DNA from: a virus
DNA: 64,000 nt
Direction: 5' to 3' (one strand)
IMG/VR virus record: IMGVR_UViG_3300045988_067909
Shown piece by piece: positions 4,734 to 59,785 of the stretch (position 1 is the first letter of the stretch; each line of letters begins with the position of its first letter). Under the pieces are notes generated by a model. The model searched no databases. It worked only from the letters and a program-made list of their open reading frames with translations, and was not told where the DNA came from. The translations under genes and the position numbers were made by a program.

Positions 4734-4937
4734 TACAGCTATAACAAAATAGTGAGTAGAAATATAATGCCATCGCCAAGAATACGAGCAATTATAATTA
4801 TACTCACATTGAATTTCTTCCTAGTTAGTAAGGTGCTTTCATACCTCTAGCCAACCTTACTATCTAGGTAGGATTCCTCTTATAGTTATTACATTTAACT
4901 CCAATTTTCTAACTTAACTGACTCCAAACACAAATAT

Positions 4938-4970
4938 CCCCATATAGGCACTGTCCTATATGGGGTATTT
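4938..4970 (+). terminator. Hairpin CCCCATATAGG-cactgt-CCTATATGGGG followed by TATTTG
   Basis: 11-bp perfect stem directly after the 4203-4733 gene. Member of the CCCATATAGG stem family. Confidence 0.5.
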
Positions 4971-5018: not shown

Positions 5019-8000
5019 TTGGCAAAAGTTAAAATTACTAATTATCTAAAGAACCTTGGTAAGTCTTTAGTATTTGCTACAGTAGAAGATACTATTAAAG
5101 CTGAAATGCCTTCGGCTACAGAGTTTATGTCTACTAATGCTGATACTATGAAACAAGTATACCATGGTATAAAAGATTATAAAAGTACAGTTAAACGTGC
5201 TGGTCAAATGATCTCCAATACTGGTCTTTACCAGGCAGGGGACTTTGCTTTTAAGTCTGCTTTAGAGGATTTAAAAACTGGTAATTTCTATAACCAACAA
5301 CGTGGCGATGACTTAATGATGAAGTCAATGGGTATGGACGATTTCGATATGGATTTCGATGATGATTTCTCTATGGAATCTGATAATAAGCCTAGTCTTG
5401 ATCATGATACAGAAGCCACTATACAAACTATAGAAGCTAGTACTGCTGCTAGTACAAATGCTATTGCTGGTGCTACTGTAAAAAGTGCTGAGCATGTAGC
5501 TGGTACTGTACGTCAAAGTACAGCACTGATGTTTGCTCAACAAGAGAAACTATTCTCTGGGTTAAATAATAATATCTTAGGTATGCATGGTACTCTAAGT
5601 AATATTATGTCATTTAACCAAAATAACTTACAAGCTCATTTAGAGAACTCTCGTAAATACTTCGAAGAGTCTACTAAATTGAATCGTGAAAACAATGCTA
5701 TCTTAAAAGAAATGCTAGATATGCAACGTCATGATTTCCAAGCTAGACAGAAAGCTCAAGAAGAAGCAGCTAAGAGAACTAAAGAAAAATTTGATATCAC
5801 TAATTTGGTTGGACCAAATGGTGGTATAAATTTAGCTAGTTATTTTAGTAATATCAAGAAGAATGCTACTGATGAATTAGAATCTTCTGAACTTGGTATA
5901 TTAGCTGGAATGGAACCAGACCAATTAAAGATGATGGTAGCAAATCCATTATCTATCATTCCTATTGCTATTGGTCAAGGTATCATTGGGAAGAACGTTC
6001 GTGCTCAAATGAAGAAACTAGATAAGACCTTATCTGGTACATTCGCACATATGCTTGCAGAGCTTCATAAGGCAGGACAAGAACGTGATGGTATAGCTGG
6101 TATTATAGGTCGTATCTTTGGTGCTAAACAAGAGATGACTACTAAACTCAAAACTGACAAGTTTGAGAAAGGCCCTGTACCATTCGATGGTATTACTAAG
6201 AAAGCTATCATTGATGTAATCCCTGGTCATTTAGCTAGAATTGAAGCAGCTCTTACAGGTAATTCAGCACCAGTGTATGACTATGAATCTGGTAAGTGGA
6301 CAACTATGGCTAAAATTAAAGAACGCCGAGACAATATGGAAAAAAGTGCTAAACAAATTGGCTTGGCTGAATTTAAAAAGCAAATGGAAAAGGGTGCCAT
6401 TACTAGTGGTGTAACTAAAGACATAGACTCTATCGGTAGTAAGAAAGAGTTCATGGAAGAATTATCTGAATACTTCTTTAAGAATCAGACTTTATCTGGT
6501 TATGACGGTAAGTATAAAGATGCTGCCAATAAAGCATGGGATAATGCTGATATGTCTTTAGCTGCTAAAGAAATCCATGATGCTATGTCTAACTTTAATA
6601 GTATGATGCATTCTATCGAGAATACACCACATGATACTATGCTTAAGTTATTTGATGGATCTCAAAAGTTTGCTGGTAAACAAGGCAAAGGTGGCAATCT
6701 TTCTGGGGTTAGCTTATTAACAGATGATGATGGTAATGGAGCAATCTATTACTTAAAGAATATCTGGGAAGAACTTAGATCAATTAGAGCTGGTGCTTCG
6801 TTTGGTGGCGCTGGTAAACGTAAGAAACCTGCTAAAGCTAAATATAAGAGAGGCTCTAATACCAATAAAGCTCACGTTAGTGGAGAGTCTAAATCTAAAA
6901 GTTCTTCAGAAGATGGAGAAGGTCCCATACTTGGTACTGCTGATCAATGGGCTAATTCAGCAGATGAAGTTGGGTATGAAGATCCAGATGAGTTAAAGCC
7001 AGATCCTAATAATATCTTAGAAGAGATATTCAGTGATACTGATGCATCTGCTGCTGATAAGTTTAAAAACGTACTTAAAGCACTATATAAATCTCCACGT
7101 AGTGTAGTAGCTGGTGCTGTAGGTATGGTTGATAAGCACATCTATAAATTCTTCTTTAAACAAGATACAGGTCTTAAAGATAAAGAAGGTAAACCTATAG
7201 TTGGTTTCTTTAATCGTATGGCTTATCAATTAGATAAGACATTTGATAGCGTAGTTGATACTTTAAAGAAGAAACTTCTTAACCCTATTAAAGCTAAAGC
7301 TAAGAAAGCTTGGAAAAAAGGTAAGGAATTCTTTGGTGGATTCGTTGATGAAGAAGACCAAGAAGAGTTTACTAATACATTTAAAGATTCTAAAGATGGT
7401 TTTATTGGTTCTATTAAAGAGCAATTTGCATCTGTAAAGAAAGATATCTTTAAAGAAGATACTGAGATGAAATTAGCTTCTCAATCTAAGCAATCTCGTA
7501 GTGTATTTATGAATAAACTAGAGAGTATGCTTGATAATGCGGTAACTAAAGATGAAGCTGATAGTATCAAGAAGCGTATCAATAAAGCTAAACGTCTATT
7601 CAAAGAAAAAGAAAATGAAGAAGACAAAGAAGAAAAAGCTAAGTTAGAGCAAAACTATAATGGTACGTTAAATGTACCAGCATATTCTTTGACTACAGTA
7701 TCACCTGGTGAAGCTATTATTCCAGCTGACCAAAACCCATTTAATCCTGATAGAGATAAAGCTGATCGTAGTAAAGATCGCTATGAGGAAGATAAATTAA
7801 AACGTAAATTTATTGGTGCTGATGGTCAAGAGATTTTATCTCATGCAGACGGTACATCATCTTTTGGTAAGGCTGGTAAGTTTGCTCGTGGTAAATTAAA
7901 TGCTTTATGGAAAGATGGTTTTGGTCGTATCGGTGATATGATCAAAGAAACCCTAGGTTCTGATGCATTTAAAAACTGGAATGAAAAAGACCGTGACTTA

Positions 8001-11000
8001 TTCATGAATCCTGCTAAACTTGCTGGTAAAGGTTTAGCTGGTGGTGGTGCAGGTGCTTTAATTGGTACATTATTTGCTCCAGGTGTCGGTACTATTATTG
8101 GTGGTTTAGCTGGTGCTGCAGGTAATATCCTAAGAGAATCTGAAACCGTTAAAGGTTGGCTATTTGGTCAAATAGGTAAAGATGGTACTCGTCAAGGTGG
8201 TGTATTCTCTCGTAAGACACAAGCCTTAATGAAGAAATATCTTCCTGATATGGGTGCATGGGGTACCGTAGGTTCTGTAGCTGGTTTATTAACTGGTTTT
8301 GGTCCTGTTGGTGGCGCTATGCTTGGTGCTGCTATAGGCTTTGCTAAGAATAACCAATCTATTTCTGATAAATTATTCGGTACACAGTTAAAAGATAAAG
8401 ATGGTCATATTATTGGTCGTGCTAATAATGGTATCTTATCTAAGAAGCAACAAGCATTCTTGAAGAAATCTTATAAGACTATGCTTCCTGGTGCTTTAGC
8501 TGGATTAGTTTTAGACCCTACAGGTGGTTTCTTAACTAATATCGCATTTGGTGCTGGTGGTAGTTTATTACTTACATCTGACAAATTCCAAAACTTCATG
8601 CTAGGTAAACGTGGATTTGATGGTAAACGTCGTGGTGGTGTAGTTGGTAAACTAGAGTCTGCTCTTACTGCACCAATTAAGCTATTTGCTAAATCCATTA
8701 CAGATACCAAGGAAGGTTGGATAGGTAAATCTATCGTTAAACCAACAGCTACACTCTTCAAAGGTTTAGCTGGTGAGATTAAAATGGCTTGGCGTAAAAC
8801 TAATATCATGGATGTAATAGGAACTGCTTGGAGAAAAGCTATCGAAAAGACAGTTGGTATTCCATTTATGCATAAATTAGAAGAAAGCTTCTTAAAACCA
8901 TTAAAATCTAAAATTGGTAGCTGGATAGGTTCTATATTCAAACCAATTAAAGCTGGTGGTAGTTGGCTTAAAGGTAAAGTAGCTGCTGGATTTGGTAAGC
9001 TAGGTGAAGCTGGTGACTTACTAATTGACCGTCAACAAATGCAAGGTCTTGGTGCTGCTTTAGGTATGTCTGCTAGAGAACGTCTAGAACGTGGACAACA
9101 ACGTGGATTAGACGGATATAAATACCAAACTATGGATACTAAGTTAGTTGGTATGGATGCTGGTCAGTTAAATACTTATCGTAACTCCTTATATGCTATG
9201 CTTGATGGTGATCAAATTCATGACCATAAAGTTGATACTATTAAAGCTGCTAGAGAAAGATTCTATGGTAATAAACGTGACTTAGAAAATGGTTGGACTA
9301 AGAAAGGTGCAGATGAAATCGCTGTAGCTTTAGATAAGGGAGAACCATGGATTAAGATTAAGAAAATTATCTTAGATCATCACTTACCATCAGAAACTGA
9401 AGAGTTCTTATTAAGAGAAGCAAGAAAAACTTATGATGAAGTCACTGCAATGACTGATATGCAAAAGATTTCTGCAGAAGAACGTGCTAAGATTCAAGCA
9501 GAAACTGAAAAATCTCTTGGTCTTGAAGAAGGTGCGTTAAATTCTCGAAGCACAACTAATGATATATTATCTACAGTCAATAATGAACTTAGTGAACGTG
9601 ATGTAGATGAAACATTAGGTTCTAAAACTGAAGTTGTAAATGAAAAGATAGTTACAGCTATGGATACATCTGTCCAATACTTGGATAAGATGAATCTACA
9701 ATTGGCAAATATCGCTAGTCTTATTTATTCTGGTAAACCTATCAATGATGATATCATGAGGGAATACAATATAAATAAGAATGGTACAGCAACTCCAGAA
9801 GATGCTGCTTCTGCTGATGCATCATTACCGACAGGGTATACTAAATCTGGTGATAAATATTATGATGCTCAAGGACGTGAAGTAGTTAAAACTACTGATG
9901 GCGGTTTCAAATTAGCCGATACCGAATCTAATAGTGATATTAAGAAAGAAGCTGAAGCTAAAGAGAAACGTGAAGATGAACGTTTTGAAAAACTAGAAGA
10001 GAGCATCGATAAGAAGAATGGTAAAGATGACGATAAGAAGAAAGATAAAGACAAAGGTGGTATCTTTGGTAAACTTAAAGGTGCATTAGCTGGTCTTATA
10101 GGCCTTGGTGGATCTATGGGTGGTTTATTAATGAACCTAGGTAAAGGTGTTGCTGGTGCTGGTATTGTTGGTTTATTTGCTCCTCAATTAATTAAAGCTA
10201 TGCCTGCTATTATCGAAGCAGTAAAAGAGAATGCCAAACCTATTGCTGATTCTGTATCTTCTGTAGTCACTGAAGTCATTCCTCAAATTACTAAGAACTT
10301 ATTCCATAGTATGGCTGACTTTATTACTGACCCTAAAGTTGGCATAGTATCTAAGTTAATCGGTACAGTTGCTGTTGGTGGTCTTATGGCTAAAGCTGTA
10401 TGGCCTCTAGTTAATGTAGGTAAGACTATATTCTCTATGGGTAAAGGTCTATTCACTTGGTTTAGAGGTTCTTCTAAGAAGACTGAAACTGAGATGGCTA
10501 TTGCTGCTAATGCTATGAATCGTGCAGCTGCTGCTATGGAACTTATGGCTGCCACTGGTGGTAAAGGTGGACCTAACTATTCTCAAATGGCTAAGAATAT
10601 GGGTCTTAGTGGTGATATATCTCCTGGTGGTGGTTATGGTAAACCTGGTAAGAAAGTCCCAGGAAAGAAACCTGGTGGTCTTAAAGGTAAACTAGGTGGA
10701 TTCTTTAGTAAGTTTGGTGGACCTAAAACTAAACTTGCTGCATCTATAGCTGCTACTGTTGGTTTGGATTATGCTCTTGATTCTATGACAGCAAGTGCAG
10801 CTGAACCAGAAACTATGGATCCTAGTATGGCCGGTTACGATACAACTGGGAACGGTGATATTCCTGTAGGAGCAAATTACGATGCTTCCAGTGAGGAAGT
10901 ACAGCAAGCCACTCAAAACGTCGATTCTGACGATAAAGGTGGTTATGGTGTAACTGACATAGCTATGGATGCTGGACAATGGTATCTCACCGATAAAGCT

Positions 11001-14000
11001 GTCGGTGCTGTATTGGATAAAGCTACAGGTGGTGGTTCTACTGCAGCTGAAGCTGGTGGTGGAGCTGTTACTGATGCAGGTAAAGCTGCTGTTAAGAATG
11101 AATCCAAATTATCTCAAATTGCAAATAAGATGAGTAAAACTGCCGAATCCACTAAAGGTATTGCTGGTAAGATATTCAGCTGGGTTTCTAACGGTGTAAC
11201 TTCCATGCTTAATAAGATTGGTAGTGTTATGCCTAATAAAGAAGTTGCTGGACGTATAGCTAAGATGGCAGGTGAAGCTGGTAAACGTGTAGCTGGTACT
11301 TTGATTAAACGTGCTGCTGCTGGTATTGCTAAGCTAGCTTCTAAAGCATTAGCTGTTGGTGCAGGTGTCGGTGCTGTATGGGTAGCTTATGACGTTATCT
11401 CTGGTATCGTTGGTGGTGTATGGGATTGGTATAATATTGCTGATATCGCATATGATGCTAATGTGGATACTGGTGTTAAAGTTATAGCTGGTGCTTCTCG
11501 TACTATCAGTAATATTTGTCTTAACTTAATCGACGAACAAGATATCTTTAATGTATTGGCCGGTATATTCTATGATATGACACCATTCCGTGAAGATATT
11601 AAACGTCGTATTCAAGAGTACAATGATAATCCTGATACTCACCCTAAAGGTGCTCCATCTAAAATCTCTACAGCTAAAGAATACAATGATATCTTTGCTA
11701 AAGGACTTTGGGATAAAGCTAAAGAAACTGCTAAAGATGTCAAAGACTGGGTTAGCGATAAAATCGATAGTGCTAAAGAAACAGTTAAAAGTGTAGCTGC
11801 TAATCTAGCTGGTAAAGCATCCAACGAAGCTCAATATGTATGGAATAAAGCTAAAGATGTAGCATCTTCGGCAACTAACGCTATAGGTAACGAGCTATTA
11901 TATATTGGTGGTAAAGCTATGACTGGTGTCGAATGGTTATCAGCCAAAGCTCAACCAATCTTAACCATGTTTGGTAAAGCTGGTGAATTAGTAGTTAACG
12001 GTATGAAAGCTGTCGGTATTACAGTAAAAGACACTGTCGGTAAAGTTACAGGATTCTTAGGTGATATGGTACAAGGCGCAAACCAATGGCTCAAATCCAA
12101 AGGTATTGATATTGGAGCTATTCCTGGTAAAGTAACTCAAGCTGCTGGTGATGCTTGGTCATTCTTGAAAACTGGTGCTAGTACTATAGCTGATAAAGTT
12201 TCTAATGAGTATACCTATGTAAAAAATGGTATAGCTAATAACTTAACTTGGGCTAAGAATGGTCTAATGTCTATTGGCCAAGGTATAGCAGACCGTATAG
12301 GTGGTAACCAAACATCTAAAACAGGTCAAAGTAAATATGGTCGTGGTGCTTTCTTTAAACAAAACGATCCATTATTTGCTAACTTACCATATCAAAACTC
12401 TACTGAGTCTACTGGACAAACAATTGGTGATTCTGGTTGTGGTCCTATAGCTGGTGTTAATGCTATTATAGCAGCTAAACATGGTATGGGTGGTGCTGAT
12501 CCTGTATCTGCAGTAAATTATGCTGCTAAGAATGGTTATAAAGAAACTAATGATGGTACTAAACCTGGATTCTTTAAATCATATGCTAAATCCCAAGGTA
12601 TGGATGCAGATAACTTGTCTAAATCCAATGTAGCTGATAGCTTAATGAGTGGTGGTTCGGTTGTATTATCAGGTAAAAGCCGTAATGGTAAATTATCATC
12701 TGATCATCCATTTGGTCCTAACCCTCACTATGTAACTGCTACAGACTATGATGCTAAGTCTAAAACTGTAACTATCCAAGACCCTGAAGAACCTGGCGAT
12801 AACTATAGATACCCTATTGGAAGTGTATTGAATAATACTGATACCGCTATTGGTATTAGTAAACGTGGACGTTCTAAGAATACTCTTCGTCGCTTAGGAC
12901 ACGGTAAATGGGGTATGGGTAGAACATTCGTTCCTCGTTGGGGCCATGGTAAGTTCGGCAGAGGTGATGGTGGTGCTGGTCCACAAATTCTTCAAATGCT
13001 TACACAGTTAGGATTTAATAAGATTGCTGCTTGTGGTATCCTTGGTAACATGATGCAAGAATCTAAATTATATCCTGATATTGTTGAGGGTGGTAGTCAT
13101 GCTCCAGAAATTAGTGTAGATGGTGCTACAGGTTATGGTTTATGCCAATGGACAGATGCTGGTCGCCAACAAGGATTGGCTGATTTCGCTAAATCTAACG
13201 GTAAATCCTCATCTGACCCAGGCGTACAGTGCTCTTACATTGCTCAAGAATGTAATAAAATGGGTATTACTACTAGCTTGAATGATTGTGCTAGTGCATC
13301 CGATGCAGCATACTTATTCCATAAAGAATATGAAATATCTTCTGATAGTAAAGAAGCAATACAAAGTCGTCTAGACTGGGCTGAAGAAGCTTATGCTAAC
13401 GATGGTGCAATAGCTGGTTCTAATGGTAACCTTTCCTCTAGTGGTGTTATCGGCGGAGCTGCTGGTGGAGCCGGTGGTGGTCAACAAGGTAACTTATTGA
13501 TGAAAGCTATCTTTGGTGATGCTGGTGATAAGATTACTCAAGCTTATAATGCTTTCTTCGGTTCTCCTGGTGGTGGAGCCGGTGGTGGTATGTCTGGTGG
13601 TGTAGTTGGTAGTGGTAATACTAAAGCCGCATCTAACTGGGCAGACTCTATGGTTAATAGCCAAGGGTATGGTAATAACGGTTGTAGTACATTCGTTAAT
13701 AAATACCTAGAGCAAGCTGGTGTAAAACAAATCAATATGTACGTTCCGACTGCAGAAGAAGAGGCTAAACAAAACAAGCCTTACTCATTTAAACCTGCAT
13801 CTGCTGGCGGTAATGAAGGTGACGTAGCGTTAATAAATACTTTGACTAGCGATGCTGAGGCTGACCATGTAGTTATCGCTGACGGTAAAGGTGGTTATTG
13901 GGGTAACTCTTCCAGTAAAAATCTTATCGTTAAAGGTGATATTGCTAACGACTTCGGTGCTGAGAATATCAATGGTTATATCGCTACTGGTGGTGATGGA

Positions 14001-14609
14001 CAAGGTGCTGTTGCTACAGGTAGTGCTACAAGATCTCAAGCGGATATTCTTAGAGACTCTTCATTGGATTATGGTGCTGGTAAATACGGTAGAGCTAAAG
14101 GTATCAGTAAATCTAAACAAATTAAGATTGAAGGTAATGCTGCGGTTAAAGCGGCAGCTGCTTATGCTAAACAGCAAAAGAAATCTAAATTTGGTAAAGG
14201 TTCTGGTATCTGGGATGCTGTATTGTCTGGTGTATCTTCATACTATACACAAAAACAAGCATCTCAATCTACAGGAGATACAGCTAATATCAATGTGACA
14301 CAAACACCAGCTACTGGTAGTTTAACACCAGAGCAAATCATGCAGTTATTACAAGCTATCATTTCATTGCTTGGACAAATTGCTACTAACACTGCAGGAG
14401 GTAATGCACAAACAGCTCCGGCAGGATCTCAAGCAGCAATAAACCCAGCTGGTGATATCAGTAATATCTTACAATCCGTCCAAGGATTATTAGGTCAAAA
14501 CAACCAAAACTTATTATCTAAGATTGGTGGTATGATTTCTGCATTCGGTGGTGGTATGTCTGCTCAAGATAAACTATCATCTAATTTAAGAACTCTAGCT
14601 GCTAAATAA
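5019..14609 (+). CDS. Tail tape measure protein, 3196 aa, with three embedded peptidoglycan-hydrolase-like domains
   Basis: TTG start 9 nt after AAAGGAGG. N-terminal coiled-coil and Lys/Glu-rich region. Several Gly-rich hydrophobic segments (GGGAGALIGTLFAPGVGTIIGGLAGAAGN) typical of tape measure proteins. GDSGCGPIAGVNAI...H Cys/His peptidase-like motif around nt 12420-12800. Phage-tail-lysozyme signature ACGILGNMMQES...GYGLCQWTD around nt 12980-13400. CHAP-like C...H motif (NGCSTFVN...GDVALIN...ADHVVIADG) around nt 13660-13920. Gly-rich linkers and a Gln-rich C-terminus. Confidence 0.65.
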   Translation: MAKVKITNYLKNLGKSLVFATVEDTIKAEMPSATEFMSTNADTMKQVYHGIKDYKSTVKRAGQMISNTGLYQAGDFAFKSALEDLKTGNFYNQQRGDDLMMKSMGMDDFDMDFDDDFSMESDNKPSLDHDTEATIQTIEASTAASTNAIAGATVKSAEHVAGTVRQSTALMFAQQEKLFSGLNNNILGMHGTLSNIMSFNQNNLQAHLENSRKYFEESTKLNRENNAILKEMLDMQRHDFQARQKAQEEAAKRTKEKFDITNLVGPNGGINLASYFSNIKKNATDELESSELGILAGMEPDQLKMMVANPLSIIPIAIGQGIIGKNVRAQMKKLDKTLSGTFAHMLAELHKAGQERDGIAGIIGRIFGAKQEMTTKLKTDKFEKGPVPFDGITKKAIIDVIPGHLARIEAALTGNSAPVYDYESGKWTTMAKIKERRDNMEKSAKQIGLAEFKKQMEKGAITSGVTKDIDSIGSKKEFMEELSEYFFKNQTLSGYDGKYKDAANKAWDNADMSLAAKEIHDAMSNFNSMMHSIENTPHDTMLKLFDGSQKFAGKQGKGGNLSGVSLLTDDDGNGAIYYLKNIWEELRSIRAGASFGGAGKRKKPAKAKYKRGSNTNKAHVSGESKSKSSSEDGEGPILGTADQWANSADEVGYEDPDELKPDPNNILEEIFSDTDASAADKFKNVLKALYKSPRSVVAGAVGMVDKHIYKFFFKQDTGLKDKEGKPIVGFFNRMAYQLDKTFDSVVDTLKKKLLNPIKAKAKKAWKKGKEFFGGFVDEEDQEEFTNTFKDSKDGFIGSIKEQFASVKKDIFKEDTEMKLASQSKQSRSVFMNKLESMLDNAVTKDEADSIKKRINKAKRLFKEKENEEDKEEKAKLEQNYNGTLNVPAYSLTTVSPGEAIIPADQNPFNPDRDKADRSKDRYEEDKLKRKFIGADGQEILSHADGTSSFGKAGKFARGKLNALWKDGFGRIGDMIKETLGSDAFKNWNEKDRDLFMNPAKLAGKGLAGGGAGALIGTLFAPGVGTIIGGLAGAAGNILRESETVKGWLFGQIGKDGTRQGGVFSRKTQALMKKYLPDMGAWGTVGSVAGLLTGFGPVGGAMLGAAIGFAKNNQSISDKLFGTQLKDKDGHIIGRANNGILSKKQQAFLKKSYKTMLPGALAGLVLDPTGGFLTNIAFGAGGSLLLTSDKFQNFMLGKRGFDGKRRGGVVGKLESALTAPIKLFAKSITDTKEGWIGKSIVKPTATLFKGLAGEIKMAWRKTNIMDVIGTAWRKAIEKTVGIPFMHKLEESFLKPLKSKIGSWIGSIFKPIKAGGSWLKGKVAAGFGKLGEAGDLLIDRQQMQGLGAALGMSARERLERGQQRGLDGYKYQTMDTKLVGMDAGQLNTYRNSLYAMLDGDQIHDHKVDTIKAARERFYGNKRDLENGWTKKGADEIAVALDKGEPWIKIKKIILDHHLPSETEEFLLREARKTYDEVTAMTDMQKISAEERAKIQAETEKSLGLEEGALNSRSTTNDILSTVNNELSERDVDETLGSKTEVVNEKIVTAMDTSVQYLDKMNLQLANIASLIYSGKPINDDIMREYNINKNGTATPEDAASADASLPTGYTKSGDKYYDAQGREVVKTTDGGFKLADTESNSDIKKEAEAKEKREDERFEKLEESIDKKNGKDDDKKKDKDKGGIFGKLKGALAGLIGLGGSMGGLLMNLGKGVAGAGIVGLFAPQLIKAMPAIIEAVKENAKPIADSVSSVVTEVIPQITKNLFHSMADFITDPKVGIVSKLIGTVAVGGLMAKAVWPLVNVGKTIFSMGKGLFTWFRGSSKKTETEMAIAANAMNRAAAAMELMAATGGKGGPNYSQMAKNMGLSGDISPGGGYGKPGKKVPGKKPGGLKGKLGGFFSKFGGPKTKLAASIAATVGLDYALDSMTASAAEPETMDPSMAGYDTTGNGDIPVGANYDASSEEVQQATQNVDSDDKGGYGVTDIAMDAGQWYLTDKAVGAVLDKATGGGSTAAEAGGGAVTDAGKAAVKNESKLSQIANKMSKTAESTKGIAGKIFSWVSNGVTSMLNKIGSVMPNKEVAGRIAKMAGEAGKRVAGTLIKRAAAGIAKLASKALAVGAGVGAVWVAYDVISGIVGGVWDWYNIADIAYDANVDTGVKVIAGASRTISNICLNLIDEQDIFNVLAGIFYDMTPFREDIKRRIQEYNDNPDTHPKGAPSKISTAKEYNDIFAKGLWDKAKETAKDVKDWVSDKIDSAKETVKSVAANLAGKASNEAQYVWNKAKDVASSATNAIGNELLYIGGKAMTGVEWLSAKAQPILTMFGKAGELVVNGMKAVGITVKDTVGKVTGFLGDMVQGANQWLKSKGIDIGAIPGKVTQAAGDAWSFLKTGASTIADKVSNEYTYVKNGIANNLTWAKNGLMSIGQGIADRIGGNQTSKTGQSKYGRGAFFKQNDPLFANLPYQNSTESTGQTIGDSGCGPIAGVNAIIAAKHGMGGADPVSAVNYAAKNGYKETNDGTKPGFFKSYAKSQGMDADNLSKSNVADSLMSGGSVVLSGKSRNGKLSSDHPFGPNPHYVTATDYDAKSKTVTIQDPEEPGDNYRYPIGSVLNNTDTAIGISKRGRSKNTLRRLGHGKWGMGRTFVPRWGHGKFGRGDGGAGPQILQMLTQLGFNKIAACGILGNMMQESKLYPDIVEGGSHAPEISVDGATGYGLCQWTDAGRQQGLADFAKSNGKSSSDPGVQCSYIAQECNKMGITTSLNDCASASDAAYLFHKEYEISSDSKEAIQSRLDWAEEAYANDGAIAGSNGNLSSSGVIGGAAGGAGGGQQGNLLMKAIFGDAGDKITQAYNAFFGSPGGGAGGGMSGGVVGSGNTKAASNWADSMVNSQGYGNNGCSTFVNKYLEQAGVKQINMYVPTAEEEAKQNKPYSFKPASAGGNEGDVALINTLTSDAEADHVVIADGKGGYWGNSSSKNLIVKGDIANDFGAENINGYIATGGDGQGAVATGSATRSQADILRDSSLDYGAGKYGRAKGISKSKQIKIEGNAAVKAAAAYAKQQKKSKFGKGSGIWDAVLSGVSSYYTQKQASQSTGDTANINVTQTPATGSLTPEQIMQLLQAIISLLGQIATNTAGGNAQTAPAGSQAAINPAGDISNILQSVQGLLGQNNQNLLSKIGGMISAFGGGMSAQDKLSSNLRTLAAK

Positions 14610-14662
14610 GTTTTGTTGTAAATTATTACAATACTAACAAATTCAGTAATTGTATATCTCAT

Positions 14663-14720
14663 ATATGGGTAGGGTATCTACTATTATTCTACCCATATAC
14701 TACTTTTGTAACTTTTTACA
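14663..14720 (+). terminator. Hairpin TATATGGGTAG-loop-CTACCCATATA followed by a T-rich tract
   Basis: 11-bp stem 54 nt after the tape-measure stop, followed by CTACTTTTGTAACTTTTTAC. The ATGGGTAG/CTACCCAT stem recurs at 30352 and 59413. Confidence 0.55.
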
Positions 14721-14842
14721 AGCTACATAACAAAAAAATACAATCTTCTAAGATAATCGTTATAGAATATGGTATTCATATTCTACGATGGAGCCTGTCT
14801 CAAAGAATAACTGTCCACGTTAATCATTATTATCTTAGAGCT

Positions 14843-15075
14843 GGGCGAAAATATTAAAGTATTTATGTATTTTCTCCCCCACTTGTCCACTGCTCTCAAG
14901 CGTCTTATTCTCCTTTTGTCTCCTGGAAAAACACATGTTTTTCATGGGGGAGAGAGGGAGGTAGGGGGCTTGGGGGTGGTGGGCAAGTGGGGGAAGAAAA
15001 TACGTAAGTATTTTCGAGCGGCCTTGAAAGCCGGGCGAGAAAATACTTACGTATTTTCTAAAAATTTTTTATTGA
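14843..15075 (+). ncRNA. Candidate structured RNA or regulatory element. A long G-rich imperfect hairpin (14867-15003) followed by two 20-nt perfect palindromes.
   Basis: The pyrimidine-rich arm (TTTTCTCCCCCACTTGTCCACTGCTCTCAAGCGTC...) pairs with the purine-rich arm (...GGGGGCTTGGGGGTGGTGGGCAAGTGGGGGAAGAAAATAC) over about 48-58 bp. Many pairs are G.U wobbles, which form only in the plus-strand transcript. The apex loop is AAAAACACATGTTTTT. GC content here is far above the roughly 35% of the window. The element ends in the T-run at 15065-15070. Confidence 0.35.
14996..15058. promoter_or_regulatory. Two copies of the 20-nt palindrome GAAAATAC-N4-GTATTTTC (14996-15015 and 15039-15058) flanking a 23-nt GC-rich mini-hairpin spacer
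   Basis: Copy 2 is the exact reverse complement of copy 1. A third, degenerate copy (GAAAATA-N14-TATTTTC) lies at 14847-14875. The repeats look operator-like, or form a large stem-loop immediately before a T-run. Confidence 0.4.
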
Positions 15076-15179
15076 AAAAGATAAAAAATGTAGTATAAAA
15101 TTAGTACAAAATATAGAAAAAGTATAAACCTCTATAGTATATAAAATAAGCTACTGTATATAAAATTATTACAAAGAAA

Positions 15180-15208
15180 CTCAGATAGAATAATATATTC
15201 TATCTGAG
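15180..15208. repeat. Perfect 29-nt palindrome CTCAGATAGAATAATATATTCTATCTGAG
   Basis: Seen directly. It lies in a non-coding region that also carries GTATATAAAAT direct repeats (15137-15165). Confidence 0.6.
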
Positions 15209-15542
15209 ATAATTTTTCTATATAGAAGATAAAATAAAACTCTCTATAGAAAGAAAGTGTATATACTCTACTCAGGAGATAAACAAACTACTTCTATTTT
15301 GTAGAGTATCATAATACTTAGGAAATTATATAAGGGTGGACTTACGTCGAGTCGCAGCTTCTAAGGCTGCTCCTCTCCTAGTCCACCATTATCTAATTAT
15401 CTTAAGTAGTATCATGATCTATTTTTTACTTTATGCTGACGCAGTTAAATTATATAACTATAGGGGTAAACAGTTTGTCTCTGTAGCAACTAATTATTAT
15501 ATAAGCAAAAATTATTCTACACAAAGAAAGGATATTCTAATT

Positions 15543-16445
15543 ATGCAATTTGATTATGAGATTCTAGATAGAATAGAATTAGATAGACCAATGATTATTG
15601 TATTCGAAGGAGTAGATGGAAGTTTTAAGAATACTCAAGCTAATCTACTAATGGATTATATCGAAGAGAATATTACAAGCAAAGTAGTTATGTTTCAGTT
15701 TCCTAACTATGGTAGTCCATCCAGTTATAATCTAACAGATTATTTCAAATCTAGTAAGCTATACAAATCTGAAGATAACTTCGAGTATGTAATCAGTCCA
15801 TTAGCAGAGTCTGCATTATTCATTACAGATATCTTCACTACGTTTAATAGTAAACAAGAACTAGATAACGTACGTACATTCTTTAATGATAACTATATTA
15901 TCATTATGGACAGATACTTCTATTCAAATATCTATTACCAATTAGCTAAACGTGTAGTAAGCAAGATGAAGCATATGCCTAGTGGATATTTGAGTTCAGT
16001 TAAATATAAAGAATCCCAAGGAATAGATTTCTCCATTATGAAAGAGATGGTAAAGAAACTAGCAGATGGATTCTTATTACCTAAAGCAGACTTAATCTTT
16101 AAGATGCATTACAAAGATACTAGTGTATTGAAAGAGACTATCGAAGCAAGGGCTAAAGAACAGACTGACCGTAATGATGAAATTAATGATGGTCAATATA
16201 CGATGCTAGATATAGCAAATGATATCTTAGCTAGATCTTTATTAGATGAAGAGCAATGTTTAGAATCCAAAGAAACAGATGTAGTCGTAGATATCCAACG
16301 AATGGATATGGAATCATCTAAGATTGTATACAGAACCAAAGAAGATATTAACAATGAAATCGTTAAAGTATTCTTAGAAAGAATTGGACAAGATGAAGAT
16401 ACTAAAGAAGATACAGAACTTAATGTCCACCAAGGAGAAGAATAG
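15543..16445 (+). CDS. Thymidylate kinase or dNMP kinase-like protein with a degenerate P-loop
   Basis: IVFEGVDGSFKNTQ aligns to the thymidylate-kinase P-loop (IVIEGLEGAGKTT), but GK[ST] is replaced by FKN. KVVMFQFPNYGSPSS matches the TxEPGG region. MDRYFYSNIYYQ matches DRhxxSSxAYQ. PKADLIF matches the LID segment PDLTLYLD. ATG at 15543 follows AAAGGA. The in-frame upstream extension back to the GTG at 15336 has no kinase homology. Confidence 0.55.
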   Translation: MQFDYEILDRIELDRPMIIVFEGVDGSFKNTQANLLMDYIEENITSKVVMFQFPNYGSPSSYNLTDYFKSSKLYKSEDNFEYVISPLAESALFITDIFTTFNSKQELDNVRTFFNDNYIIIMDRYFYSNIYYQLAKRVVSKMKHMPSGYLSSVKYKESQGIDFSIMKEMVKKLADGFLLPKADLIFKMHYKDTSVLKETIEARAKEQTDRNDEINDGQYTMLDIANDILARSLLDEEQCLESKETDVVVDIQRMDMESSKIVYRTKEDINNEIVKVFLERIGQDEDTKEDTELNVHQGEE

Positions 16446-19777: not shown

Positions 19778-20566
19778 GTGTTTGATATTTACGACCCAAG
19801 AACTTTGAACTTATTTACTGATGCATCTGTCAATAAGAAGAGTCATACTAAACAGAATAACGATGTAGTCGCAGGATGTCTACCATTATTCTACTCTGAC
19901 CAGATGCAATATCTCGATAGATGTGGAAAATTTTGGATGTTAGAACCAACCTATCAGTATATACGTAAGACAACTAATAACTATGGTGAGCTATATGGTC
20001 TTCTTTTAGCCTTTATGTATATAGAGCAAATGACTACAGGAAGACAAGTATGTCCATTTACCACATTTAATATCTTTAGTGATAGTAAGATTAGTGTATG
20101 TGCTCTTCGTGATTGGCTACCAGGTTGGTTAAGAAACATGGATGAGAATGGTATTATGTATAACTCATCTGGAATTCCTGTAGCAAATCAAAGTCTTTAT
20201 CATCATATCTTAGCAGTTATATCTAATATACCTGATTGGGTAAATATTAGAATATCCCACATCAATGGGCATATAGATACAAGAAAATTATTGCATATTA
20301 AGAAAGCCTATAATAACTTTTTGAATTCTAATAGCTATAATCAAGAATTTGTATCATTTAAAGAGTACTTTGAATTGGCTGATGATTTACATAAAGCCAA
20401 TAATTATATCGATAATTACACTAGACAGATGCTATACAATAGTAATAGTACTGGTGTATATGGTAGACGTATAGAAGCAAATATGCCTATTATAACTGAA
20501 AGATACCCATACCCAGACTTCAGAAGAATATCAAAGATATTTAGTTTTAAATATAGTAATCTTTGA
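19778..20566 (+). CDS. RNase H-like protein
   Basis: LFTDASV matches the RNase H motif (TDGS). TTNNYGELYGLLLAFMY matches TNNRAEL...A. IFSDSKISVCAL matches the STDSQYV region. ISHINGHIDTRKL matches the WVKGH region. GTG start 9 nt after AAAGGGGGTG. Confidence 0.5.
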   Translation: MFDIYDPRTLNLFTDASVNKKSHTKQNNDVVAGCLPLFYSDQMQYLDRCGKFWMLEPTYQYIRKTTNNYGELYGLLLAFMYIEQMTTGRQVCPFTTFNIFSDSKISVCALRDWLPGWLRNMDENGIMYNSSGIPVANQSLYHHILAVISNIPDWVNIRISHINGHIDTRKLLHIKKAYNNFLNSNSYNQEFVSFKEYFELADDLHKANNYIDNYTRQMLYNSNSTGVYGRRIEANMPIITERYPYPDFRRISKIFSFKYSNL

Positions 20567-30002: not shown

Positions 30003-30030
30003 ATAGTAAAAGTTAATACTTACGATTATA

Positions 30031-30134
30031 TACTATAATTGTGTATGGTAGATACAGCCACCTACAGTAGCTGTATCTAAATATAACCATACACTTGTAG
30101 ACATAAGTCTACTTGCCGAAAGGAGGTGACTCCT
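30031..30134 (+). promoter_or_regulatory. Conserved cassette leader, copy A. Promoter-like TATACTATAAT, then nested inverted repeats (GTGTATGGTAGATACAGC-N11-GCTGTATCTA-aatataa-CCATACAC; GTAGAC-ataa-GTCTAC), then AAAGGAGGTGA.
   Basis: About 90% identical to 59085-59191 and 59478-59584. The stems are conserved while the central loop differs among copies. Confidence 0.6.
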
Positions 30135-30341
30135 ATGGCACAACCTGGTTGCGTAGGAAACTACGCCAATCAGTTAGCTGAACGTAATTCCAATTTAGAA
30201 TGGAAAATACGTGTAGCTAAAACTTTGGTAGCCGATCGATATCTTGGCATTAATAATGTCACTCATCATGAAGCTATCATGGCTTACCGATTCCTCAAAG
30301 CTGTAGGAATCAAAATGACTATAACTGAAAATCACTTATAG
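30135..30341 (+). CDS. Small paralogous protein A (68 aa; MAQPGCVGNYANQLAER...NVTHHEAI.AYRFLKA.GIK..ITENHL), unknown function
   Basis: ATG lies 8 nt after GGAGG. Paralogous to 59192-59398 and 59585-59785. Own promoter and terminator. Confidence 0.7.
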   Translation: MAQPGCVGNYANQLAERNSNLEWKIRVAKTLVADRYLGINNVTHHEAIMAYRFLKAVGIKMTITENHL

Positions 30342-54272: not shown

Positions 54273-54358
54273 TCAACAAAATAATATAGACTTGGGATGA
54301 ACACGGATCCTAAGAATATCTCTTTTTACTACAATATTACTAAAACTTTTTTAGATGA

Positions 54359-54383
54359 CCCATATAGGCATTGCCTATATGGG
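54359..54383 (+). terminator. Hairpin CCCATATAGGC-att-GCCTATATGGG
   Basis: 11-bp perfect stem after the 524-aa gene. A T-run lies upstream and a modest T-content downstream. Confidence 0.45.
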
Positions 54384-54485
54384 TTATCTACTGTCTCAAT
54401 ACAATGAAATATAATTTTGGATATATATTATAACTGTGTAGTAATTATAGTAAATTTGTTTTATAGTTAAGGAGGAACAATTACT

Positions 54486-59021: not shown

Positions 59022-59060
59022 CCCAGTATAGTCATTGACTATACTGGGTATTATTTTTTT
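59022..59060 (+). terminator. Hairpin CCCAGTATAGTCA-t-TGACTATACTGGG followed by TATTATTTTTTTT
   Basis: 13-bp stem with a strong T-run. Confidence 0.75.
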
Positions 59061-59084
59061 TGTAAAAGTTAATCTTTATAGTTA

Positions 59085-59191
59085 TATACTATAACTGTGT
59101 ATGGTAGATACAGCTATTCGTAGTAGCTGTATCTAAATATAGCCATACACTTGTAGACTATAAGTCTACTTGCCGAAAGGAGGTGACTCCT
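59085..59191 (+). promoter_or_regulatory. Conserved cassette leader, copy B (TTGTAA -35-like, TATATACT -10-like, nested inverted repeats, AAAGGAGGTGA)
   Basis: Near-identical to copies A and C apart from the loop of the large inverted repeat (tattcgtagta). Confidence 0.6.
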
Positions 59192-59398
59192 ATGGCGAAT
59201 CCGGGATGCGTAGGTAACTACGCTAACCAATTAGCGGAACGTTCAGCCAATGTTGGCTGGATGATCCGCTATTGCCAAGATATAATCTATGATTATGTCT
59301 ATGGTAATAACGGTGTAAGTTTAGCCGAAGCTAAAAAAGCTGAAGCTTACTTGCTCCAACACGGTATTAGTCTCACTGTTGATCTAGACAAAGTCTAA
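59192..59398 (+). CDS. Small paralogous protein B (68 aa; MANPGCVGNYANQLAERSAN...), unknown function
   Basis: Same N-terminal 25 aa as A. The remainder aligns at about 35% identity. Confidence 0.7.
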   Translation: MANPGCVGNYANQLAERSANVGWMIRYCQDIIYDYVYGNNGVSLAEAKKAEAYLLQHGISLTVDLDKV

Positions 59399-59412
59399 TA
59401 CCAATTAATATA

Positions 59413-59455: not shown

Positions 59456-59477
59456 GTAAGTAAACTGTTTTACAATT

Positions 59478-59584
59478 ACATACTATAACTGTGTATGGTA
59501 GATACAGCTGGCAGGCTATAGCTGTATCTAAATATAACCATACACTTGTAGACATAGTCTACATGCCGAAAGGAGGTGACTCCT
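59478..59584 (+). promoter_or_regulatory. Conserved cassette leader, copy C
   Basis: Same architecture as A and B. The loop of the large inverted repeat is tggcaggctata and the small palindrome is GTAGAC-ata-GTCTAC. Confidence 0.6.
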
Positions 59585-59785
59585 ATGGCAGGATGTGTTA
59601 TGAATTACCATAATACATTAGCAGAAAGATCTACCAATTTAGATTGGCAGATCAGAACTGCTATAAGCCTAGTGATTGATCGTTACTTTGATATTAACAA
59701 TGTAACGCATCATGAAGCTATTAAGGCTTATCGATTCCTTAAAGCACAAGGAATCAAATTACCTATAACTGAAAATCACTTATAG
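59585..59785 (+). CDS. Small paralogous protein C (66 aa; MAGCVMNYHNTLAER...NVTHHEAIKAYRFLKAQGIKLPITENHL)
   Basis: About 65% identical to protein A. Confidence 0.7.
   Translation: MAGCVMNYHNTLAERSTNLDWQIRTAISLVIDRYFDINNVTHHEAIKAYRFLKAQGIKLPITENHL

Follow-up and report, generated by a model that had tools for sequence, protein, structure and literature searches.

The stretch of viral DNA analysed here, 64,000 nucleotides (nt) of the IMG/VR record IMGVR_UViG_3300045988_067909 and hereafter called the window, contains a non-coding gap of ~930 nt between the stop of a gene encoding a protein of 3196 amino acids (aa; 14609) and the start of a gene for a dTMP-kinase-like (thymidylate-kinase-like) protein (15543). 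The gap holds an element composed of a promoter-like site, a 5' domain, a long hairpin whose 3' strand is G-rich, and a further hairpin built from two palindromes, and this element very probably represents a previously undescribed non-coding RNA, with a + strand structure maintained by selection inside a transcription unit of its own. Helices are labelled P1-P4 in the 5' domain, P5 for the long hairpin and P6 for the palindrome hairpin. Relatives of the element fall into two clades, A and B, with the window belonging to clade A. The features of the locus are as follows:

5019-14609: upstream gene, the 3196-aa open reading frame (ORF), with a tail-lysozyme domain and tape-measure-like PHROG matches.
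14662-14699, + strand: intrinsic-terminator-like hairpin of the 3196-aa gene from a terminator scan, with a stem of 15 base pairs (bp) followed by CTACTTTTGT; left border of the unit.
14704-14744, + strand: promoter-like region from a promoter scan, with TTTTGTAA, a -35 hexamer TTTACA (14715-14720), an 18-nt spacer and a -10 hexamer TACAAT (14739-14744).
14752-14874, + strand: 5' domain in its clade-A form, with a hairpin at ~14758-14790, a possible GCCYG/UGGGC long-range pairing and a degenerate third palindrome, from the fold.
14876-14925, + strand: 5' strand of P5, C/U-rich, from the pair table.
14927-14944, + strand: apical hairpin of P5, GAAAAAC-ACAU-GUUUUUC, from the fold; invariant among all clade-A sequences.
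14947-14995, + strand: 3' strand of P5, G-rich with four G5 runs, from the pair table and the G-quadruplex motif scan.
14995-15059, + strand: hairpin 2 (P6), with a perfect 21-bp stem, from the fold and an inverted-repeat analysis; possible terminator of the unit.
14996-15015, + strand: palindrome 1, GAAAATACGTAAGTATTTTC, with 8-bp arms around GUAA.
15016-15038, + strand: GC mini-hairpin of 23 nt.
15039-15058, + strand: palindrome 2, GAAAATACTTACGTATTTTC.
15060-15075, + strand: A/T run TAAAAATTTTTTATTG after hairpin 2, read from the sequence; possible 3' end of the transcript.
15053-15335, no strand assigned: AT-rich spacer adjoining the element, with short GTATATAAAAT-like direct repeats.
15072-15101: second promoter-like site, TTGAAA-18-TAAAAT, found by scan within the spacer.

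Folded as RNA, the + strand of 14843-15075 reaches -128.2 kcal/mol (the unit of all energies given here) compared with a mean of -61.8 for dinucleotide-shuffled sequences (z = -15.4; 0 of 200 shuffles were as stable), and the reverse strand of the same interval reaches only -85.5. P5 (14876-14995, +) comprises 54 pairs, namely 24 G-C, 18 A-U and 12 G·U, and taken by itself (14875-14997) folds at -89.8 on the + strand versus -50.0 on the - strand; for single-stranded DNA the asymmetry is smaller (-35.1 versus -25.7). In a 140-nt sliding fold over all 64 kilobases (kb), P5 is an extreme outlier at -92.5, the mean being -26.7 with a standard deviation (sd) of 7.3. Its G5 runs start at 14946, 14964, 14972 and 14989, and a scan of both strands of the 64 kb found canonical G-quadruplex motifs in this G arm only, where G4Hunter also has its maximum (2.24, the second highest value in the window being 1.36). 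Immediately 3' of the G arm, palindromes 1 and 2, which are the sole matches to their pattern in the window (chance expectation 0.09), pair as a perfect 21-bp inverted repeat enclosing the 23-nt mini-hairpin. A weaker, degenerate third copy of the palindrome lies at 14847-14874, and pairing of 14856-14880 with 14990-15014 could take the place of hairpin 2; this potential antiterminator is no core feature of the element, being unconserved in clade B.

An initial annotation of the window, made from the letters alone, had described a long hairpin of ~50-58 bp with G·U pairing on the plus strand only, together with paired 20-nt palindromes, a 23-nt GC mini-hairpin and a T-run between the tape-measure terminator and the next gene, and all of these are present, the terminator lying at 14662-14699 and the next gene starting at 15543. 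Its suggestion that the G tracts could alternatively form G-quadruplexes is legitimate, since no other such motifs occur in the 64 kb and G8AG7 is found at the equivalent place in clade B. The proposal of a discrete element of 150-230 nt has to be revised: the interval that was described is P5 plus P6 of a larger unit with a promoter-like site and a 5' domain, measuring ~320 nt in the window and ~350-450 nt in clade B.

Relatives were collected by one exact-pattern scan and two protein-seeded scans of IMG/VR and ENA metagenome contigs, yielding ~90 loci from two clades of uncultivated metagenomic phage genomes (~235-270 kb). At the C-terminus of the large protein, amino-acid identity is 85-99% for clade A, whose near-complete contigs measure 257-270 kb, and 45-66% for clade B (contigs of 234-239 kb). 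Both clades have the same synteny (large gene, non-coding region, dTMP-kinase-like gene), and all relatives have the same architecture of terminator, promoter-like site, 5' domain, P5 with a G-rich 3' strand, and P6. Within clade A, two haplotypes (A1 and A2) were distinguished, and differences between them reveal which parts of the element are free to vary. Flanking coding DNA is 78-92% identical between the haplotypes; the apex of P5, the G arm and P6 are 98-100% identical, and the C/U arm is only 82% identical. The 98% identity of the G arm reflects one C-to-G change and one inserted G, which shifts the register of pairing. In the C/U arm, 9 of 51 positions differ (five C/U transitions and four transversions), and the substituted positions are paired in 9 of 9 cases in A2 and 8 of 9 in A1. 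P5 has 54 bp (-89.8) in A1 and 56 bp (-92.8) in A2, and the antisense fold is weaker in A2 (-41.1) than in A1 (-50.0). When 2000 random sets of substitutions of the same number and type (transition/transversion mix) were simulated, stability averaged ~-68 to -72 (sd 6.5), and 0.05% of the simulations matched the observed value (p ~5e-4). Since either C or U can serve as partner to G, the pyrimidine arm could drift in this manner without loss of pairing, as is observed.

The clade-B element differs in sequence from that of clade A and has a 140-nt 5' domain with four helices (P1-P4). The basal 3' strand of its P5, TGTG-G8AG7-C, pairs with GCCCCUGCGGUUCCUCACA, and its P6 consists of GTATAAAC-GAAA-GTTTATAC, a hairpin that has a GC stem and a conserved loop rich in purines, and GTATAAA..TTTATAC. 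Covariation was assessed with RNAalifold on 22 distinct clade-B sequences, for which 97 predicted pairs were cleaned to 94. Over these 94 pairs, 99.8% of cells are paired, and 12 pairs have compensatory double changes (61 cells), whereas sliding the partners by 1-3 columns leaves 0-1 such pairs; the score for covariation is 0.119 versus ≤ 0.031 in the slid controls, and 0 of 500 shuffles equal it. The compensatory changes extend to the helices P1-P4 of the 5' domain, and P6 has six such pairs. The strand asymmetry recurs as well, with 8-12 G·U pairs in P5 on the + strand versus 0-2 on the - strand and energies of -41 to -53 versus -28 to -30. The clade-B element is 91-98% identical (5' domain 94-97%, G tract 98%), compared with 70-84% for coding flanks and ~68% for the AT-rich spacer, and in both clades conservation is highest in the G arm and P6. 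The conserved island in clade B runs from the terminator and promoter through a terminator-like hairpin ~110 nt beyond P6; with these limits, it therefore looks like the footprint of a transcription unit.

Similarity between the clades is weak at the level of sequence (best local alignment, z ~2.3). A covariance model built from the G tract and second hairpin of clade B alone nevertheless gave one strong match in the window (128 kb of searched strand), at 14969-15085 on the + strand (32.3 bits, E ~3e-6). The runner-up, at 54334-54400 on the - strand (16.8 bits, E 0.025), looks like an ordinary intergenic terminator hairpin whose outer stem is AU-rich. Shared synteny, shared architecture and the covariance-model match together place clades A and B in one RNA family. 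Several proposals of the initial annotation can be judged from these comparisons. That the structure belongs to the + strand rather than to a DNA palindrome is borne out by the pairing-preserving drift and the recurring G·U asymmetry; compensatory or G·U-preserving changes, on which it would have had the idea stand or fall, occur in both clades; the element, which it considered might be absent from close relatives, is present in every relative found; and the covariance model that it recommended building from related phages recovers the window element. The role of antisense regulator finds no support, as nothing is encoded on the opposite strand.

The element matches no described family. The recommended search against known RNA families (Rfam 15, whole window) gave no match at the gathering threshold, a permissive Rfam scan of 14000-16000 returned generic miRNA-hairpin noise only (best 34 bits versus 171 needed), and the same permissive scan of the clade-B element returned terminator noise only. 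ARAGORN found no tRNA or tmRNA in the window. The element and the surrounding 20 kb had no match in INPHARED by blastn and megablast, the palindrome 20-mer had seven single chance matches in 185,579 reference genomes, none of them with a G arm, and literature searches returned no description of the element. Using the thymidylate-kinase-like gene as query recovered clade A only, and an exact search of IMG/VR for TGTG-G8AG7-C found clade B and three unrelated contigs of ~70% GC, with no further clades. In these three contigs (L095, 3300043331_000537; L098, 3300043331_001419; L100, 3300036842_000014) the 20-mer is intergenic and followed by short tandem repeats, and they have no similarity to the element beyond the 20-mer.

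A coding function was considered for the ORF at 14865-15098 (77 aa) and rejected. A 1-nt insertion in the G arm frameshifts it in haplotype A2, and since this insertion or deletion falls in the only ORF of the P5 region, the region is not coding; clade B has unrelated sequence at this place. A retron msr-msd was likewise rejected, as the flanking ORFs contain no reverse-transcriptase domain (searches of Pfam, PHROG and NCBIfam gave dTMP-kinase-like and RNase H matches only).

While the comparative data argue for a structured RNA, a number of observations weigh against this interpretation or leave room for others. Watson-Crick compensatory changes would equally preserve a DNA cruciform, so that a single strand is indicated by the G·U (G·T) asymmetry alone, and single-stranded + DNA would have the same asymmetry. 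In clade A, near-identity extends ~480 nt past the predicted 3' end of the RNA (the AT-rich spacer is 98.9% identical between haplotypes), which suggests DNA-level constraint or a recent recombination tract. Both 20-mers are self-complementary in clade A and in clade B, and since the long hairpin 2 does not require this, the palindromes are under a constraint of their own. In clade B3, all four outer palindrome positions have changed together, from G..C to A..T in both palindromes, a concerted change that a simple long stem explains less well than local mini-hairpins or binding sites for a dimeric DNA-binding protein would. The promoter, the transcript 3' end and RNase III cleavage are predictions. 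Hairpin 2 is no textbook terminator: a simple terminator scanner made no call there, and clade B has no U-run immediately 3' of P6. Finally, the neighbouring genes are mostly without recognised function, and no partner protein or target emerged from them.

Some of these points would be accommodated if the element were a site acting at the level of DNA, in double-stranded or extruded form, with palindromes that bind a dimeric protein (e.g., a regulator, partition protein, recombinase or terminase), a G-rich tract that serves as a DNA G-quadruplex or structural signal, and RNA folding that is incidental. Self-complementarity is kept although the 20-mers differ between the clades (GAAAATAC/GTATTTTC versus GTATAAAC/GTTTATAC), clade B3 shows four-way co-variation of the outer positions, the palindromes lie just upstream of promoter-like hexamers, and the clade-A conservation runs across AT-rich DNA; the breakage of short-read contigs at the element could be read in the same way. 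The G·U asymmetry and the pairing-preserving drift of the C/U arm, however, would be meaningless for duplex DNA. The palindrome occurs nowhere else in the 64 kb, and a dispersed operator was rejected because this locus is the only one. Domain scans recognised no integrase, ParB-like, protelomerase or terminase gene nearby. Taken together, a DNA-level site is a distinctly improbable explanation of the whole element.

The contig ends require separate consideration. Among IMG/VR clade-A contigs, 12 of 12 reaching the element from the left and 10 of 10 from the right end or start inside it, at break points scattered over window-equivalent positions 14936-15075 and 14958-15038 (contigs with ends at the element: L001-L021, L041-L043 and L072-L081). 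In ENA assemblies of clade A, seven contigs read through and three break, and many clade-B contigs also read through, while several stop just past the G run; OEJR01000001.1 (259,967 nt) is an example of a read-through contig. Calls of the poly-G length vary among assemblies (G8AG7, G17, or junk in L022). The first and last 16 nt of one contig of 264,781 nt are identical and lie in the G arm, which is what a circular or terminally redundant assembly would show if it were broken at this place. The breaks are read as technical failures of coverage or sequencing at the hairpin and G tract, with no physical terminus, and contig ends at this site are therefore not to be counted as genome ends. Scattering over ~140 nt and read-through in several assemblies speak against a fixed cut site or telomere; together with the imperfection of P5 as DNA, they led to the rejection of a hairpin telomere, protelomerase site, cos site or fixed genome end, and they disfavour the packaging signal that the initial annotation had listed among the candidate roles. 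The element is thus a reproducible breakpoint of short-read assembly, which matters wherever completeness or termini are inferred from contig ends.

The G tract and its surroundings raise another possibility, namely that the element is a transcript-primed replication origin in which the transcript of the unit serves as a pre-primer. In such a scheme the G-rich strand of P5 would stay on the C-rich template, or form a hybrid RNA-DNA G-quadruplex with the displaced + strand, to give a persistent R-loop; transcription would halt at P6 and the T-run, and the 3' end of the RNA, perhaps after trimming by the phage RNase H, would prime DNA synthesis into an AT-rich unwinding region. The C/U arm would then be a built-in RNA antagonist or switch that masks the G tract and gates the R-loop. 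The sole G-quadruplex motifs of the window do adjoin its lowest-GC 150 nt (16% GC), which start at 15053, 6 nt before the end of hairpin 2. The G-rich tract could form a hybrid or G-quadruplex and, judging from the orientation of the promoter, lies on the non-template strand, where an R-loop or G-loop would need it. Conservation peaks in the G arm and P6 in both clades, and a true RNase HI-type gene (PF00075) is located 4.7 kb downstream. The loop of palindrome 1, which is of the C-G(N)AA-G type and is kept in all clades (GUAA, GAAA, GAA), takes the forms C-GAA-G and C-GAAA-G, and such loops resemble very stable DNA mini-hairpins found at some phage origins. Iteron-like arrays lie 3' of the clade-B element (15 TATCARTATA boxes within 740 nt), and the clade-B G8AG7 has the same GnAGm form as mitochondrial CSB II (for conserved sequence block II; PMC5027508).

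Several features fit poorly with an origin. The RNA hairpin should compete with R-loop and G-quadruplex formation by masking the G tract, and a simple primer needs no highly conserved complex 5' domain such as that of clade B. The AT-rich region is poorly conserved in clade B (68%) and there resembles tandem promoter modules; domain scans of the neighbours recognised no replication initiator, helicase, primase or polymerase adjacent to the element; the genes on both sides share one direction, and the GC skew in the window merely follows gene orientation. An origin is therefore considered unlikely. Should it be true, the element would be a bacterial-virus counterpart of the mitochondrial priming mechanism, and a G tract that works like CSB II would offer an experimentally tractable phage model for G-quadruplex and R-loop priming. 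The AT-rich spacer itself probably contains the sequences that control the downstream operon, and it may also include an unwinding region. Its clade-B counterpart (L024, 7290-8026) carries ~15 TATCARTATA copies mostly in one orientation (24 in the locus versus 7.4 expected) as well as three 57-nt promoter-like modules (AATTGAAT..GTTATCCGGTATATTATTATATATAAG), repeats that could be iterons or tandem early promoters.

The limits of the proposed transcription unit were predicted from signals on either side. The promoter-like site agrees with 10 of 12 consensus positions, with a predicted rightward start near 14751, and clade B aligns with the same layout (TTTTGTAA..TTACA..N18..TAAAAA). The 5' domain that follows (14752-14874) is 94% identical between the two clade-A haplotypes. 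A natural variant (L040) carries a 79-nt deletion, equivalent to window positions 14746-14824, that removes most of the clade-A 5' domain; it starts 2 nt past the -10 hexamer and leaves the promoter-like site intact. Another contig (L047, ~4860-4960) has a tandem duplication of ~53 nt spanning the promoter-like stretch. At the other end, hairpin 2 has a stable G-C-containing stem-loop, as a rho-independent terminator would, the 3' strand of its stem terminating in UUUUCU followed by AAAAAUUUUUU.

These same signals could be taken to mean that the element is a cis-acting RNA boundary without any function in trans, which blocks read-through, protects RNA from exonucleases and provides a processing site for RNase III. 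A terminator flanks the element on one side and the tandem promoter-like sites of the next operon on the other, no structure in the window is more stable, the element's long uninterrupted double-stranded RNA is typical of RNase III substrates, and the symmetry of A-run, stem and U-run at hairpin 2 is like that of a bidirectional terminator. The upstream gene, however, has its own terminator in both clades, and that of clade B, at the equivalent place, is stronger (CCCCTTAGGATCATAGTAATCCTAAGGGGA followed by a T-run); a conserved promoter-like site separates this terminator from the element; and a boundary role leaves unexplained both the four-helix 5' domain of clade B (94-97% conserved) and the self-palindromy of both 20-mers. 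A boundary element pure and simple is consequently judged a rather poor prospect.

The interpretation favoured here, a structured non-coding RNA from its own unit, can be extended into a mechanism. After termination of the tape-measure-like gene at 14662-14699, host-type RNA polymerase would start rightwards at a sigma-70-like promoter (14715-14744). The + strand would fold into the 5' domain, the ~54-bp P5 rod and P6, a step with comparative evidence that holds for whichever + strand nucleic acid folds, and P6 with the U-run would end the transcript at ~15060-15075, giving an RNA of ~320 nt. The pairing of a G arm with a C/U arm would produce a very long RNA helix from DNA that is merely an imperfect inverted repeat, and owing to the same design the antisense strand would be unable to form the helix. 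RNase III substrates need at least about 20 bp of largely uninterrupted double-stranded RNA, and the predicted uninterrupted runs in P5 (27 bp in haplotype A1 and 43 bp in haplotype A2) are longer than this; from what is generally known of RNase III, the host enzyme would be expected to cut P5, leaving a 5' product and a G-rich 3' one that carries P6 as its cap. Speculatively, the processed, nuclease-protected molecule would function as RNA, and its likeliest mode of action would be to bind a protein of the phage or the host. This mechanism of a processed, trans-acting RNA as a whole is put forward tentatively, as a possibility that falls somewhat short of an even chance.

The 3196-aa ORF has an additional weak, sub-threshold match to a C39-like peptidase, and if the protein is a tape measure, its size implies an exceptionally long tail. 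Past the dTMP-kinase-like gene there are several genes without recognised function, then the RNase HI-type gene (19778-20566), with virion and tail-fibre genes further on (30-51 kb). Because virion and tail-fibre genes recur there, the element is not at a clean boundary between late and replication modules. Searches of the neighbouring proteins against Pfam, PHROG, NCBIfam and PDB sequences gave almost no matches.

Other structured sequences were observed in the window. A second GC-rich hairpin, GGGUGGACU...AGUCCACC, lies upstream of the dTMP-kinase-like gene (15336-15392; -28 kcal/mol, z = -5.2), with an inner 5-bp stem and a 7-nt loop, UUCUAAG, that resembles an anticodon loop (CUA); ARAGORN identified no tRNA there. 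It is 97-100% conserved in clade A with a pyrimidine tract of variable length, and its equivalent in clade B is a different, co-varying GC hairpin (GUUGCCAUUUGCCC-UUAC-GGGCAUGGCAAC). A 72-nt segment carried by six of six other clade-A contigs compared is missing from the window between 15474 and 15475; the segment is flanked by the direct repeat GTCTCTGTAGCAACTA, and its absence looks like a repeat-mediated deletion or a collapsed repeat. Three paralogous cassettes (30010-30340, 59060-59400 and 59460-59785) each consist of a terminator, a promoter-like TTGTAA-17-TATACT, a conserved structured leader and an ORF of ~65 aa. The leaders, with the consensus GUGUAUGGUAGAUACAGC..GCUGUAUCUAAAUAUARCCAUACAC, GUAGAC..GUCUAC and GCCGAAAGGAGGUGACUCCU-AUG, are the most stable folds in the window after the element studied here (140-nt scan).

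The element is classed with the phage-encoded structured non-coding RNAs, and its unusual trait is the 54-56-bp helix buffered by G·U pairs. The helix illustrates clearly, in a natural sequence, how G·U wobble can give a long RNA duplex without a long DNA palindrome and how the same design can make the fold strand-specific and buffered against C/U drift. The RNA would add a new family to the few large, highly conserved structured RNAs of phages, from a lineage of uncultivated jumbo phages with mostly unrecognisable proteins.

Comparison with known systems places the element near several types of structured nucleic acid. In ColE1 RNA II, the T4 origins oriF and oriG, and the mitochondrial light-strand promoter-CSB II system, as predicted for the element, a structured transcript runs toward an AT-rich region with a G-rich RNA segment on the non-template strand, and an RNase H gene is present in this genome. 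CSB II is G5-6AG7-9, a form shared by the clade-B tract, and it terminates POLRMT and T7 RNA polymerase (PMC5027508); termination at an RNA or hybrid G-quadruplex yields the replication primer (PMC5027508; PMC3488243 and PMC4176368). The element differs from these systems in that it has no adjacent replication genes and no sequence homology to them, and in that, according to the predicted fold, its G tract is paired up inside a long RNA helix. Like rho-independent (bidirectional) terminators, hairpin 2 has a stable stem with A-rich sequence on its 5' side and U-rich sequence on its 3' side. It differs in its 21-bp AU-rich outer stem formed from two self-complementary 20-mers and in its interrupted U-run, and no U-run directly follows the stem in clade B. 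The RNase III hairpins of the T7 R-sites and lambda sib are likewise long, imperfect, strand-specific hairpins between cistrons or at operon boundaries; the helix described here is about twice as long (54-56 bp), contains an unusually large share of G·U pairs (12-16), seems to be served by a promoter of its own, and is embedded in a multi-helix RNA. The large phage-associated RNAs GOLLD and ROOL (PMC12286853) are also phage-borne, several hundred nt long, multi-helix, highly conserved and without an assigned function. Compared with these, the present RNA is smaller, matches no Rfam model, has as its main features a single long G·U helix and a hairpin flanked by palindromes, and occupies a fixed place after a tape-measure-like gene.

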